64,000 bases of DNA from a virus. Lineage: Duplodnaviria > Heunggongvirae > Uroviricota > Caudoviricetes. This document shows, in pieces, positions 11,580-15,505 of this stretch; within the stretch, counting starts at the first letter, position 1, and every line of letters begins with the position of its first letter. The stretch lies in the IMG/VR virus record IMGVR_UViG_3300048672_000524, positions 1-64,000 of that record; one strand, 5' to 3'. Below the pieces are notes generated by a model. That model was not told where the DNA came from. It ran no database searches and was given only the letters and a program-made list of their open reading frames with translations. Position numbers and translations under genes: made by a program.

Positions 11580-12118
11580 TATATAACTCTGGTTGTAGCT
11601 GCGTATTCCTGGTCATAGAGACCATATAGAATGTGTGTATTACCTACTACTAGTAATCCAGCGTGCGTCATTTCGTGGGTTGGCGCATACAGGGTTTTAA
11701 ATCGTGAGGGTATTCCTTGTACCTCGATTATAGCCCCACCAGTCATAATAGCTGTAACTTTAGTAATCTTTTTAAATATTAGTTTAACTCGTTGAGTTTT
11801 GGTATATTCAAATAGCTGCCCATTTTTATCAATGAACCATGTATTACCTTTGGCAAGTTTTACTAAATCAGATAGGAAGAATATAGCCTTATTGAGACTA
11901 TGTAGGTTTACACCCTCATTCTTCATTGCTAACCTACGTAATGCAAAACTTTCTTCTGGCCTATTCTTATCATCAATAATTTTCATTATATACTCTGCGT
12001 CAGAGTATTTAGTATCTCTACCTAATAGGTAAAAGGAAACCCCTTCCTCAATAATAGGGGCCTCCTTACCTAAACGAAATACTGGAAATGAAATATCGGA
12101 AAATCCTACATTATTCAT
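11579..12118 (-). CDS. hypothetical protein
   Basis: ORF track, coupled to helicase. Confidence 0.35.
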   Translation of the reverse strand: MNNVGFSDISFPVFRLGKEAPIIEEGVSFYLLGRDTKYSDAEYIMKIIDDKNRPEESFALRRLAMKNEGVNLHSLNKAIFFLSDLVKLAKGNTWFIDKNGQLFEYTKTQRVKLIFKKITKVTAIMTGGAIIEVQGIPSRFKTLYAPTHEMTHAGLLVVGNTHILYGLYDQEYAATTRVI

Positions 12119-12683
12119 TTTTAACTAGAATACCTTCTTCAATACGGTAACGCTTGTCGAATTTACCGAAAGAGTAGTCTTGTCCAATTTCTTGGTCTAC
12201 ACCGATCGGAGTTCCTGCAATACCACAGCCACGTTCTTTTTGTGTATTTCTACGTAGAATTTCACAGTATTCTTCAACCTGATCGTTACGTACTAATGCA
12301 ACGATAGAGTCATGTACAAGCATGAAAATCTTAGCATCAAGACCCTTACTAGCGACCTCGTCTGCAGTATCCATAGCACCTAATAGGTTAACATCAGATG
12401 CTAAAGATTGTACTTCTGCATTAATACCACTACGTACTTCGTGAGCGGCAATACCTTTATCAGCAGAGAATACATTAGTTAGGCGACGCTTACGTCCAAA
12501 GAAAGAATAGGTATAACCATTTGTTTCAATGAAAGTCTTACGAGTATCAAGCCATTGCTTAAGTTTACGGAACTTAGTAAAGTACTGCTTAATATCTTCC
12601 TTGGCTCTATCTAACCCGTAGTACTCACCGGTCGCCTTACTCACAGTATCAGATACCTTTTGTGGTCCTGAACCGTATAAACA
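12111..12683 (-). CDS. DNA polymerase (family A) exon 2
   Basis: ORF 12111..12644 extends in-frame upstream (YGSGPQKVSDT) to ~12683; continues motif B (YG...) and carries motif C LVHDSIV. Confidence 0.75.
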   Translation of the reverse strand, partial: CLYGSGPQKVSDTVSKATGEYYGLDRAKEDIKQYFTKFRKLKQWLDTRKTFIETNGYTYSFFGRKRRLTNVFSADKGIAAHEVRSGINAEVQSLASDVNLLGAMDTADEVASKGLDAKIFMLVHDSIVALVRNDQVEEYCEILRRNTQKERGCGIAGTPIGVDQEIGQDYSFGKFDKRYRIEEGILVKNE

Positions 12684-13780
12684 TCATAATCCGCTATTAC
12701 TAGCGGGATGGACTATACCTTTATCTCTTTTCTCTTATATCATCTACTATTAGTCTTTGATATAGAGCATACTTCCTATCAAGGTATACGTTACTATCGG
12801 CATACATAAACTTTAGTAAAGTTTTAGCATCATTAGTATTGTATTTAAGTTGCCATTTAGTGGAGCCTTCAAACTCCTGTAAATGACCACCTAAATTTAA
12901 CGTATCTTGAAGGTAACTAAACAAACGTACTGAAAAATCTTTACTACCACTTGCAAAAGTAGCGTATATAGAAGAAGTTATAGAGTTTTTATTTGAAAAA
13001 CTTTCACAAATACTTCCGTCACCGTCAAAGTATCCTCTTAAGTAGTGTCTCATAAACTTAAGAGGTAGTATTGTAAGTTTTAACTTATCTGTTTTATTAG
13101 GGATAATACTATAGTTAATATCAAGTATATCACAAATATAAGGATTAGTAAACTCAAAACTACATCTATTATACTTATCTGTATTTACGGATATAGTATG
13201 TGTTGACTGCATAAATGTTTTAAATTTTTCTAGATGGTTAATATCATCATACTTCAACATAATACGTACTCTATGTTTAGTATCTACACAACCATCCGCA
13301 GCTAAGAATCCCGCCCAATAGCAGGATTCTTCGCTATACTCGTCGAAAGCTTTTTCGTTACCAATGGTGGGTCGTTTAGTACCCCAACCATTAGTAGCTA
13401 TTAACTTTTTTAACTTCCAATCAGGTATTTGGAAATACTCAGCTATTTGAGCTCTACTAATACCTGTATTTTTCAGATTTAAATAATCTGTGTAATTAAT
13501 TTCCATATAACCCTTTGTATGTACAAAGGGAGAGATACTCGCCGTATTATACCTCTCCCGAAAACTTTTTGGCATTAGTGTAATTTTAGCACCTTAACCA
13601 TAAGTTTTCAAGAGTATTTTTGGTATCCCAGACAACTTCCGTTCTGGAAGCCCTGTGAGTCTCTGAACCATTTGAAGGCATTCCTGCCGACTCTGGCTGC
13701 TGATTGACCTTAACTTAATAGTAGGTGTTCCAGCAATTGAGCGAGTTATTTGTTCTAATCGTCACCGATTAGTGGGACCT
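12684..13780 (-). mobile_element. putative group I intron in the DNA polymerase gene (motif B), carrying a LAGLIDADG endonuclease
   Basis: exon 1 ends ...RQSAKAISFGINL then stop; exon 2 resumes with YG...; ~1.1 kb intervening with a free-standing HEG ORF and ~200 nt structured 5' region. Confidence 0.6.
12721..13575 (-). CDS. LAGLIDADG homing endonuclease (intron-encoded)
   Basis: two LAGLIDADG-type motifs WAGFLAADGCV and LRGYFDGDGSI. Confidence 0.8.
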   Translation of the reverse strand: MPKSFRERYNTASISPFVHTKGYMEINYTDYLNLKNTGISRAQIAEYFQIPDWKLKKLIATNGWGTKRPTIGNEKAFDEYSEESCYWAGFLAADGCVDTKHRVRIMLKYDDINHLEKFKTFMQSTHTISVNTDKYNRCSFEFTNPYICDILDINYSIIPNKTDKLKLTILPLKFMRHYLRGYFDGDGSICESFSNKNSITSSIYATFASGSKDFSVRLFSYLQDTLNLGGHLQEFEGSTKWQLKYNTNDAKTLLKFMYADSNVYLDRKYALYQRLIVDDIREKR

Positions 13781-15505
13781 TTATAGGTTAATCCCGAATG
13801 AAATAGCTTTAGCAGATTGACGCATAGCACCATAGAGATTTTTTACGTCTTCAACAGCGCAAGGTAAATCAAATACCATCTTAGCGATTGATGAATGGAA
13901 GTCACCACCACTAGAGAATACAGCCTGTAAGTTCTTATCCCCAGATAGCACCGCAGCATAGTACATTTCTGCAGTTGCCAAGTCTTGGGATACAATAGAG
14001 TACCCTTCAGGAGCTAGAATACAACCCTTAATGATAGGATCATCACGAGGAATTTGTTGAGCATTGAACTTGCCACTAGAACTTAAACGTCCTGAAGTAG
14101 TAAAGATTAGATTAAAGTTAGTACGAATACGACTATCTCTATCAATCTCTGGTAGAATTTTGGCTACGTATGAGCTTTGAATCTTACCAAGTCTACGAAC
14201 GTCTAAAATTGCTTTTGGTAGGTCGTGCTGGTCACTTAGTTCTTCTAGAACTTCGGCGTCTGTCGATAAAGCTCCTGCTTTCGTAAGCTTTCCCGTTGGA
14301 GTGAGGCCAACATAATCAAACAGAATCGATCTAAGCTGTTGTACGGAGTTCGGATTGAAGATTTTGCCCGTAGCAGCTTCAAACGCTTTAACTTCCTTAA
14401 ACGCATATACCTTCTCCTTAGCTTCCATTATCCATAGGTCTAGGAACTTACCTGCAGCCTCCATTCTAGGTATAGACATAGGAATACCTACTTCTTCCAT
14501 ATCCATTAGGAATAGAGTACCACGAATTAGTAAGTTATTGTAAACCCATAGTAGCTTTTCGTTATTTTGTACAATGGGCCAGAACTTTAAGAATAGTTCC
14601 AAAGTTACTGCAGTATCAATAGAAGCGTACTTACTTATGATATTAAAAGGAATTAAGTCATAAGTAAAGTCATCAGTAGAGATACCTGTACGAGCACAGT
14701 AATCCTTCTTAAAGTCATCTAGCTCTGCGTCATAATCACCGTAATCAGTGTACTTAAGGGCTAATGGTTTTAGACCATGAGCGTCTGTTTCATCTAGTAC
14801 ATAGTGCATTACCATTGTATCATGGACGTATGCTCTGCGGAAGATTAACCCAAGATGGTAGGAGATCATTTTGTAGTCGAACTTCATATTATGGAATACG
14901 ATTACGTATTTATCTAGAATCTTTTGGAGAAGCTCCAAGTGCTCTATATCTAGAATATCAGTAATAACGTATCTTCCATGTTTTGGTTTATAGGACATAG
15001 AAAGTCCTAATACATATCCATCACGTGGGTATAGCGCTGTAGTTTCAGTGTCTAGTGCTACCGCGGATGCATTAGAGTCATAAACTTCTTGTAAGAACTC
15101 CATAGCTTCGGTAGCATTACAGATACCCTTGAAGTCGCCATTCTTAGCAGCGTTTTTTACGGTACCTGCAATATATCCATTAATTTTAGATATTGCACGT
15201 TCGAAATCAGGCTTACCTTCTGGTTTAAAGATAAGCATTGCAGGATTACTAATAGGTATAAACTTATCATTTACTAGTAGTCCGGAGTAGTTAGTTACTG
15301 ATACTTTTGCGTACTCTTTTGACGCCTCAGAACCAACTAAAATTACAAAGTCATATTCATCTAGGTCTACTACTAAGTCTACGTCTTTCTTGAGTAGTTT
15401 AGTAATAGGAACCGAACTCATATGATAGAGGTCGAATTCAAAGTCAAAATATTTTGAATAATCATTTCGGCTTGGAGCCTTATCAATAACTGCAATTTTA
15501 GCCAT
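13781..15505 (-). CDS. DNA polymerase (family A) exon 1 with 3'-5' exonuclease domain
   Basis: exo motif LDTETTAL, polymerase motif A DLATAEM, motif B start RQSAKAISFGINL. Confidence 0.8.
   Translation of the reverse strand: MAKIAVIDKAPSRNDYSKYFDFEFDLYHMSSVPITKLLKKDVDLVVDLDEYDFVILVGSEASKEYAKVSVTNYSGLLVNDKFIPISNPAMLIFKPEGKPDFERAISKINGYIAGTVKNAAKNGDFKGICNATEAMEFLQEVYDSNASAVALDTETTALYPRDGYVLGLSMSYKPKHGRYVITDILDIEHLELLQKILDKYVIVFHNMKFDYKMISYHLGLIFRRAYVHDTMVMHYVLDETDAHGLKPLALKYTDYGDYDAELDDFKKDYCARTGISTDDFTYDLIPFNIISKYASIDTAVTLELFLKFWPIVQNNEKLLWVYNNLLIRGTLFLMDMEEVGIPMSIPRMEAAGKFLDLWIMEAKEKVYAFKEVKAFEAATGKIFNPNSVQQLRSILFDYVGLTPTGKLTKAGALSTDAEVLEELSDQHDLPKAILDVRRLGKIQSSYVAKILPEIDRDSRIRTNFNLIFTTSGRLSSSGKFNAQQIPRDDPIIKGCILAPEGYSIVSQDLATAEMYYAAVLSGDKNLQAVFSSGGDFHSSIAKMVFDLPCAVEDVKNLYGAMRQSAKAISFGINL

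Follow-up and report, generated by a model that had tools for sequence, protein, structure and literature searches.

The locus considered here raises one question: what interrupts the family A DNA polymerase gene of a T5-like phage within motif B, and is the insert removed from the RNA, from the protein, or from neither? The gene lies on the minus strand of a 64,000-nucleotide stretch of viral DNA (the window; positions 1 to 64,000 of the IMG/VR record IMGVR_UViG_3300048672_000524, Caudoviricetes), and between its two parts stands an open reading frame (ORF) for a LAGLIDADG endonuclease. An initial annotation had proposed a group I-like intron. As argued below, the insert is very probably a mobile group I intron of subgroup IA that carries a LAGLIDADG endonuclease gene, a reading that we draw from sequence comparison.

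The two outer ORFs belong to a single gene. The ORF at 15505..13781 ends in ..RQSAKAISFGINL* at a stop codon (ORF list and sequence) and matches Pfam DNA_pol_A_exo1 and then DNA_pol_A over profile positions 19-217 of 381. The ORF at 12644..12111, to which ORF callers assign a GTG start at 12644, reads (C)LYGSGPQKVSDTVSKATGEYYGL / CLYGSGPQKVSDTVSKATGEYYGL in its in-frame upstream extension, with a TGA directly upstream of exon 2 in the polymerase frame; thus extended, it matches DNA_pol_A positions 233-379 of 381, so that the pieces follow one another within a single polymerase. The junction was chosen by group I rules (U preceding the 5' splice site, G closing the intron), and a single solution fits: exon 1 ends at 13791, the intron runs from 13790 to 12682 and exon 2 starts at 12681. 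Exon 1 finishes with ..AKAISFG and the AT (GGG AT|) that opens an Ile codon; exon 2 (U UUA UAC GGU) supplies the third base and continues with LYGSGPQKV... The intron therefore splits this Ile codon after its second base, inside the FG-I-LYG stretch of motif B (the O-helix), at a position that should match L764 of E. coli Pol I (Klenow numbering, with R754, K758, F762 and Y766).

Removing 13790..12682 in silico yields one ORF of 2286 nt for a family A polymerase of 761 aa, with the junction ..AKAISFGI|LYGSGPQKV.. and motif B (FGILYG) restored in frame, much as the initial annotation had anticipated from a YGSGP.. motif in the extended downstream ORF. The ligated exons are predicted to read ..TTCGGGAT|TTTATACGG.., and the intron-less allele reads ..TCATTCGGGAT|TTTATACGGTTCAGG.. 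around the insertion point (predicted target stretch GCTAAAGCTATTTCATTCGGGATTTTATACGGTTCAGGACCACAAAAG). The joined product is 51% identical to the uninterrupted polymerase of Vibrio phage pVp-1 (T5-like, Demerecviridae) and aligns with it gap-free across the junction (MRQSAKAISFGILYGSGPQKV vs MRQAAKAITFGIMYGSGPAKV). The ORFs, the Pfam pieces and this alignment together agree with the earlier placement of the interruption in motif B; an exon 1 of 13781..15505 had been proposed with it, and of that proposal the intron size of ~1.1 kb stands, while the boundary shifts to 13791 and the intron measures 1109 nt. Among 50,697 phage records, none proved nearly identical to the 3.6-kb region.

The insert resembles a group I intron at both ends. 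The Rfam model Intron_gpI (RF00028), a scan that the initial annotation had suggested, matches a 5' half at 13799..13479 (28.6 bits, E=8.8e-5), spanning P1-P7, and a 3' half at 12830..12690 (23.2 bits, E=0.004), spanning J8/7, P7' and P9; the gathering score of the model is 50 bits. Searches with the endonuclease protein and the 5' intron DNA returned Providencia phage vB_PreS_PR1 (NC_041913) and Proteus phage PM135 (NC_042090), which have the same order of polymerase N-terminal part, endonuclease and polymerase C-terminal part, and Bacillus phage OmnioDeoPrimus, whose ORF-less polymerase intron scores 86 bits in Rfam. A 16-mer of J6/7-P7 (AAAUGGUUCAGAGACU / AAATGGTTCAGAGACT) occurs in 84 IMG/VR stretches. 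In all, 25 distinct introns of 246-1113 nt, from the T5-like phages PR1 and PM135 and from IMG/VR contigs (designated L), sit at exactly the codon used in the window; every one is preceded by U and ends in a G, after which comes the third base of the Ile codon. Most ORF-bearing forms measure 1101-1113 nt. The ORF-less introns at this codon (246-457 nt) score 61-79 bits, all above 50 (L047, 78.9; L079, 76.7; L078, 253 nt, 73.5; L052, 246 nt, 69.9; L075, 67.9; L035, 64.6; L034, 61), and the core of the window intron is 83-85% identical to those of L035, L052 and L078. PR1, PM135 and L005 form a second subgroup with an extended P2 region, a small P7.2 loop that lacks the promoter-like insert described below, and different P8 sequences.

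The fold was examined in an alignment of 24 sequences, with the P8 loop trimmed from the long forms and the helices mapped from the window sequence onto the alignment; as controls, pairing partners were slid by 1-3 columns, and 500 shuffles were made. All of P1, P2, P3, P4, P5, P6/6a, P7, P7.1, P7.2, P8, P9 and P10 could be mapped in the window (Table 1). Standard pairs fill 93.9% of cells (33.6-40.2% with slid partners), both sides change at 39 of the 76 pairs (13-24) and in 231 cells (25-46), and the covariation score is 0.366 (at most 0.097); none of these values was reached in any of the 500 shuffles. The window forms 74 of the 76 consensus pairs and keeps all invariant core nucleotides, P7, J6/7 and J8/7 being invariant in the alignment. 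The invariance of P7 makes it uninformative on covariation; elsewhere in the core, P3 is paired in 96% and P4 in 97% of cells, all seven pairs of P6a co-vary, and the P9 hairpin (CCGCUA-GUAA-UAGCGG, 12706..12691) has compensatory changes at four of six pairs. P7.2 (strands AUACC, 13626..13622, and GGUAU, 13553..13549) is 95% paired with four co-varying pairs, reading AUACC/GGUAU in one subgroup and AUGGA/UCCAU in the other, and its extension P7.2a (13614..13604 with 13565..13555) is 92.5% paired against 45-67% in slid controls. Helices P7.1 and P7.2 between P7 and the 3' strand of P3 are the mark of subgroup IA in the classification of Michel and Westhof and in the Twort ribozyme structure, and subgroup IA is the usual group I type in phages; their presence here assigns the window intron to this subgroup.

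The helices that join intron to exon are, with P8, the most telling. The U.G pair at the splice site in P1 is found in 24 of 24 sequences. At another P1 pair (alignment columns 8/29: GC 18, GU 4, CG 2), the exon Gly codon changes from GGG to GGC in two sequences and the guide changes from C to G to match. In P10 (columns 22/374: UA 17, CG 2, UG 2), the Leu codon of exon 2 changes from UUA to UUG, and the guide follows from U to C in two sequences and otherwise forms a wobble. The intron thus co-varies with synonymous changes in the exons, for which there is no cause unless the RNA splices.

P8 defines the place of the ORF. This helix is long-range and encloses the ORF; it is paired in 96.5% of cells with compensatory changes at five of six pairs (for example AUACCUAUUUA/UAAAUAGGUAU in PR1 and ACCUAAGA/UCUUAGGU in PM135), and in the minimal intron L052 the same strands close a 4-nt loop (AUCUCU-AUAA-AGAGAU). 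Rfam places P8 of PM135 in a local hairpin before the ORF start, a placement that we rejected since the ORF-enclosing helix co-varies and equals the P8 of L052; an RBS-hiding role, taken up below, suits the local hairpin better. The ORF, earlier described as free-standing, therefore sits in the P8 loop, with its stop codon (12723..12721) inside the 3' strand of P8. The structured 5' sequence predicted at ~200 nt is present and longer, ~260 nt (13790..13531), and is joined by a 46-nt 3' part. The group I-like intron first proposed is supported by the Rfam half-matches, themselves below threshold, by ORF-less orthologues above threshold and by covariation in the P1-P10 fold; the P3-P7 core, on which that proposal had been made to depend, is found.

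Table 1. Features of the interrupted polymerase gene and other elements of the window, with positions in the window, strand and supporting evidence.
Feature	Positions	Strand	Description	Evidence
DNA polymerase exon 1	13791..15505	-	3'-5' exonuclease domain and N-terminal polymerase part	ORF list, Pfam, collinear with pVp-1
Group I intron	12682..13790	-	1109 nt, subgroup IA-like; begins UAACCUAUAAAGG, ends ..GAUUAUGAUG, terminal G 12682	Rfam half-matches, restored ORF, homologues, covariation
DNA polymerase exon 2	12111..12681	-	stop codon included	restored ORF, pVp-1 alignment, Pfam
P1	13774..13795	-	exon GGGAU (13795..13791) with guide GUCCC (13778..13774); U.G at splice site	
P10	13785..13780 with 12681..12676	-	guide UAUAAA with exon 2 UUUAUA	covariation
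P2	13755..13772	-	hairpin CUAAUCG-GUGA-CGAUUAG	both-side changes at 7/7 pairs
P3 5' strand and P4-P5-P6/P6a domain	13668..13746	-	ACUCGCU (13746..13740), then domain 13735..13668	Rfam alignment, pair counts
P7 5' strand	13658..13663	-	G(A)GACU; partner AGUCC 12714..12710	invariant 24/24
P7.1	13629..13655	-	hairpin CAGGGCUUCC-AGAAC-GGAAGUUGUCUG	97% paired, 6/10 pairs compensatory
P7.2, P7.2a and apical insert	13549..13626	-	insert absent from minimal introns	covariation
Promoter-like element, sigma-70 type	13583..13611	-	TTGAAA-17 nt-TAAAAT, upstream TG	best consensus match in region, 10/12
P3 3' strand	13537..13543	-	GGCGAGU	Rfam alignment, covariation
P8 5' strand	13531..13536	-	AUCUCU; partner AGAGAU 12728..12723, 803 nt downstream	covariation, minimal intron L052
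Hairpin before endonuclease start	13511..13530	-	CCCUUUGU-ACAU-ACAAAGGG	same position, different stems in nearly all ORF-bearing homologues
Homing endonuclease gene	12721..13506	-	261 aa, in P8 loop; motifs ..GFLAADG.. and ..GYFDGDG..	Pfam, PHROG, PDB profile
3' ribozyme part	12682..12728	-	46-nt; P8 3' strand, J8/7, P7 3' strand (12714..12710), P9, terminal G	Rfam second half-match
Interrupted tRNA-Leu(UAA) gene	28709-29378	-	5' half 29378..29345, intron 29344..28758 (587 nt), 3' half 28757..28709	
Split ribonucleotide reductase gene	649-3437	-	N-terminal piece 3437..2997, C-terminal piece 1851..649	
Permuted (two-piece) tmRNA gene	25960-26419	-		Rfam tmRNA_permuted 118 bits, beta_tmRNA 105 bits

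The endonuclease gene itself looks intact, with a predicted product of the two-domain LAGLIDADG type. The mechanically called ORF (13575..12721) contains the WAGFLAADG and YFDGDGSI motifs on which the initial annotation had based a LAGLIDADG assignment, and Pfam LAGLIDADG_3 agrees (E=9e-8, 33 bits against a cut-off of 22.5), as it does for 14 of 14 homologues; PHROG 4645 'endonuclease' matches at 1e-54. A search of PDB with the single sequence was uninformative (E=0.32), so that a family profile was needed: built from 14 homologues, it matches the solved single-chain LAGLIDADG enzyme PDB 2dch (E=7e-6) over profile positions 63-236, covering both domains. The Asp residues that close the two motifs, D71 and D163, are invariant in these homologues. 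Two LAGLIDADG motifs per chain, each with a terminal Asp, are likewise found in PDB 2dch and the I-DmoI type and in the intron ORFs of Twort-like Staphylococcus phages. The window enzyme differs by an extra N-terminal region of ~60 aa, in which we see faint helix-turn-helix hints only, and its similarity to any solved structure is very low. Its amino-acid identity is 41-80% to the endonucleases of orthologous introns and ~31% to intron-encoded endonucleases of Staphylococcus phages. A separate Met-initiated ORF had been recognized at the outset and is retained here, although its start is most likely the ATG at 13506 (MEINYTDY..), common to all homologues, and not 13575, which is not shared; the called ORF overlaps the ribozyme, positions 13575..13507 being the 3' strand of P7.2, the 3' strand of P3, the 5' strand of P8 and a hairpin.

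Several observations nevertheless weigh against a functional, self-splicing group I intron. Both Rfam scores of the window intron fall below the gathering score, as expected of an intron in which the model is broken up by an ~800-nt ORF in L8 and by an insert in L7.2. The two consensus pairs that fail in the window are mismatched positions of an internal loop in P6a, present in most homologues too. P1 has only 5 bp, and folding predicts a local hairpin (GGGAGAGGUAU..AUCUCUCCC) that would compete with P3 and P8.

Three other explanations can be weighed against the same evidence. The one that survives best, though still improbable, is that the insert is a group I intron by descent that does not splice by itself, either needing its LAGLIDADG protein as a maturase or a host factor, or being defective and leaving an inactive polymerase. 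Some LAGLIDADG proteins do act as maturases (PMC3984707), and the short P1 and the competing hairpin fit this explanation. Yet ORF-less members persist at the same site of an essential gene, so that the core needs no endonuclease protein in cis; as to a defective intron, the window retains almost all consensus pairs and every invariant core nucleotide, and an inactive polymerase would be lethal for a lytic phage.

Less probable again, and very unlikely in our judgement, is a gene in pieces, in which a free-standing endonuclease gene split the polymerase and two polypeptides (574 aa and ~177-188 aa) assemble without splicing into an active enzyme. This is not unprecedented: the ribonucleotide reductase of phage Aeh1 is split in this way. 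In the public records of PR1 and PM135, an 'endonuclease' stands between two CDSs, each called 'DNA polymerase', and ORF callers do give the second piece a start (the GTG mentioned above). However, the ORF lies between the two parts of a full group I core that co-varies, also in its base pairs between intron and exons, and the orthologous ORF-less inserts are Rfam-validated introns. A split would also leave FGI on one chain, lose LYG if the second chain began at GTG 12644 and break the O-helix; moreover, exon 2 is directly preceded by a stop codon, and its boundary has no ATG start nearby. The weakest candidate is an intein with a LAGLIDADG domain, removed at the protein level. In its favour, LAGLIDADG endonucleases are common in inteins, and polymerase motifs are frequent intein sites. 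It can be excluded (the initial annotation had preferred an intron without ruling it out) because the polymerase frame meets a TAA three codons past the insertion point and a TGA just before exon 2 (sequence alone suffices here); besides, the endonuclease ORF runs in frame into neither exon, and its flanks are ribozyme.

The polymerase intron also looks mobile, because 77 of the 80 closest polymerase relatives are uninterrupted at the codon (the 80 closest of 366 IMG/VR matches to the C-terminal 199 aa of exon 1, at 81-89% identity); two carry the 1.1-kb form and one the 253-nt form. In 1027 of 1049 isolate phage records, T5-like phages of E. coli, Salmonella and Klebsiella among them, a 105-aa peptide across the junction finds an unbroken match, and Vibrio phage pVp-1 is likewise uninterrupted. 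Within the Proteus phages, Stubb is uninterrupted and PM135 bears the intron. Decaying forms exist as well: in L016 (349-nt intron) the ORF is reduced to MEINYIVEKR* and the -10 box of the promoter-like element is gone, and in L034 (457-nt intron) a natural deletion has truncated the ORF, both introns being otherwise intact. Patchy spread together with forms that have gained or are losing the ORF is the life cycle expected of a homing intron.

Introns occur at other positions too in related viral contigs. In contig L035 (4585-5153), polymerase motif B contains two group I introns that Rfam validates (79.2 and 64.6 bits), 38 nt from each other, and a similar exon context is seen in L052, L025 and L082; some relatives appear to have a second insertion site a few codons upstream of that used in the window, with a micro-exon between the two. 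In the helicase gene next to the polymerase, the Walker A motif (..ALVGWG|K..) is split in related viral contigs by an intron with the same J6/7-P7 16-mer (L010 2806-3871, L013, L029, L034, L050, L061, L063, L069, L083 and L087). The orthologous helicase of the window (11579..10263) is uninterrupted.

We infer splicing activity, endonuclease activity and its target, promoter use and translational control from the sequence, and propose the following scheme. The polymerase gene would be transcribed through the intron, whose RNA would fold into the P1-P10 core; an external guanosine would attack after U 13791, held in the P1 U.G pair, and P10 would align exon 2 while the terminal G 12682 serves the second step, so that the joined message would encode one polymerase of 761 aa. 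The endonuclease most likely cleaves, at the insertion site or close to it, the intron-less polymerase alleles that co-infecting relatives bring in, whereupon repair would copy the intron in (homing). Its expression is probably separate from splicing in two respects: transcription may start at a sigma-70-type promoter within apical P7.2, and translation is probably held down by a hairpin in which the ribosome-binding site (RBS) is hidden. A ribosome that reaches the end of the ORF would, because the stop codon is part of P8, keep the ribozyme from folding for a short time.

Is the promoter-like element a promoter? On balance we lean towards thinking so. It lies ~70 nt before the endonuclease start, in a P7.2-loop insert of ~60 nt that is found in introns of the window's subgroup with a full or decaying ORF and is absent from minimal introns. 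All 15 insert-bearing introns have 10-12 of the 12 consensus positions at the same offset, with differing spacers (two are perfect), against 6-9 of 12 in introns without the insert, and the -10 box falls in a part that has no detectable conserved fold. Consensus matches alone would be insufficient, and the case rests on conservation across species, which is only partly independent of RNA structure. Three points tell against a promoter: consensus matches are not in excess in the region (12 against 13.5 expected in shuffled sequence); the -35 box lies inside the co-varying P7.2a stem, where the sole -35 variant is compensated; and the PR1/PM135 subgroup has the endonuclease without the insert.

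As for translation, the 3' arm of the hairpin before the ORF contains a Shine-Dalgarno-like AAAGGG 4 nt before the endonuclease AUG. The recurrence of this hairpin with differing stems in nearly all ORF-bearing homologues suggests that it dampens translation of the endonuclease. A switch between GGGAGAG (13561..13555) and CUCUCCC that would expose the RBS in promoter-initiated transcripts was considered and is unsupported, GGGAGAG lying in the co-varying extension of P7.2; likewise, and against any such exposure, partition-function folding gave no consistent difference in RBS accessibility between promoter-initiated and full-length transcripts.

How does this intron compare with known systems? 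Group I introns with endonuclease genes are known in the PolA genes of several phages: SPO1, SP82 and Bastille (I-HmuI, I-HmuII and I-BasI), the T7-like PhiI/W31, cyanophage Pf-WMP3 (I-PfoP3I), Xanthomonas phage phiL7, Shewanella phage KASIA and many Bastillevirinae. The named examples are self-splicing introns, likewise of IA type and with an endonuclease ORF, and like that of the window they interrupt highly conserved, functionally critical stretches of PolA. The first bases of the Pf-WMP3 intron, UAA, make a stop soon after exon 1 (PMC3428280), as happens in the window, and the ribozyme core of OmnioDeoPrimus is 71% identical to that of the window over ~120 nt (its annotated genes 161 and 162 run into the ORF-less intron, with no intron feature). 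The differences are four: the site, in motif B (~codon 764) where published PolA introns lie at 674, 676 and 881 in E. coli Pol I numbering (PMC3428280); the enzyme, LAGLIDADG instead of HNH; the ORF, in the P8 loop instead of P6a as in T7-like and Pf-WMP3 introns (PMC3428280); and the host family, Demerecviridae (T5-like). LAGLIDADG ORFs are the less common type in phage introns (PMC3984707), yet known. In the open-access literature, taken without the Bastillevirinae supplementary tables, we found no intron in PolA motif B and none in T5-like phages. The closest counterparts are PR1, PM135 and ~20 IMG/VR contigs, which share the codon, the U|..G| boundaries, the core and the endonuclease family with the window; the public records of the two phages give the polymerase as two CDSs and an 'endonuclease', with no intron feature.

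The arrangement of signals recalls the td intron of T4. That intron is also of subgroup IA with P7.1 and P7.2, and its endonuclease I-TevI, a GIY-YIG enzyme whose ORF is looped out of P6, is expressed from signals inside the intron, its RBS being hidden in a hairpin; a T4 late promoter starts inside this hairpin and so frees the RBS. In the window, a promoter-like element and an RBS hairpin occupy corresponding logical positions. In contrast to td, a LAGLIDADG ORF in the P8 loop replaces the GIY-YIG ORF in P6, and the promoter-like element precedes the hairpin entirely, with no sign in folding of an RBS-freeing switch.

Other elements of the window deserve mention. Besides the polymerase intron, other group I introns are present, so this phage clearly tolerates them. 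A group I intron with an HNH endonuclease ORF (core 60.7 bits in Rfam, threshold 50) splits the tRNA-Leu(UAA) gene between U34 and A35, the site long known from cyanobacteria and plastids; the 5' exon ends in U and the intron in G, and splicing in silico gives a canonical tRNA-Leu(taa) of 83 nt (ARAGORN). A 20-mer of its J8/7-P7 occurs in 19 IMG/VR contigs, in most of which tRNA 3' halves follow, mainly Leu-like with some others. According to a 2014 review, the phage introns known at that time all lay in protein-coding genes (PMC3984707), and this split tRNA gene may be the most novel item in the window. The ribonucleotide reductase gene is split around an ORF for a GIY-YIG and NUMOD1 endonuclease (2889..2098), and the insert has a partial Rfam group I match (2981..2791, 30 bits, model positions 47-158, with AAUUGCUGGAAA at 2971); it is probably a third group I intron. 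At the nucleotide level, the three introns are not close relatives of each other. The permuted tmRNA gene, with the tag peptide ANDSIFEVRLAA (ARAGORN), stands at the edge of a block of ~25 tRNA genes (25349-47130), all on the minus strand.

The polymerase intron adds a clear-cut case to a familiar kind of element and leaves current concepts unchanged. It is possible, though we would not count on it, that the locus combines an undescribed PolA site in motif B, a family (Demerecviridae) not known for introns, and a modular, self-regulated element whose P7.2 promoter, RBS hairpin and P8 stop codon jointly time endonuclease production against splicing. As we read it, the intron marks a fourth site in family A polymerase genes and extends group I introns to T5-like phages, which are in use for phage therapy and as model systems. 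The polymerases of the window, PR1 and PM135 therefore merit annotation as one spliced gene and not as two fragments and an 'endonuclease', bearing in mind that gene callers misplace the endonuclease start inside the ribozyme. The enzyme is far from solved LAGLIDADG proteins, and its presumed target is a conserved polymerase sequence of 20-30 bp. The 25 natural variants at one codon, from minimal 246-nt ribozymes through forms with the promoter-like insert and forms with decaying ORFs to full 1.1-kb elements, make a series for studying how an endonuclease gene is gained, regulated and lost. An account of phage PhiPA3 indicates that its intron endonuclease is a weapon against a co-infecting phage (PMC11620839); if the proposed self-regulation is true, the intron of the window could likewise act as a weapon against co-infecting intron-less T5-like phages.

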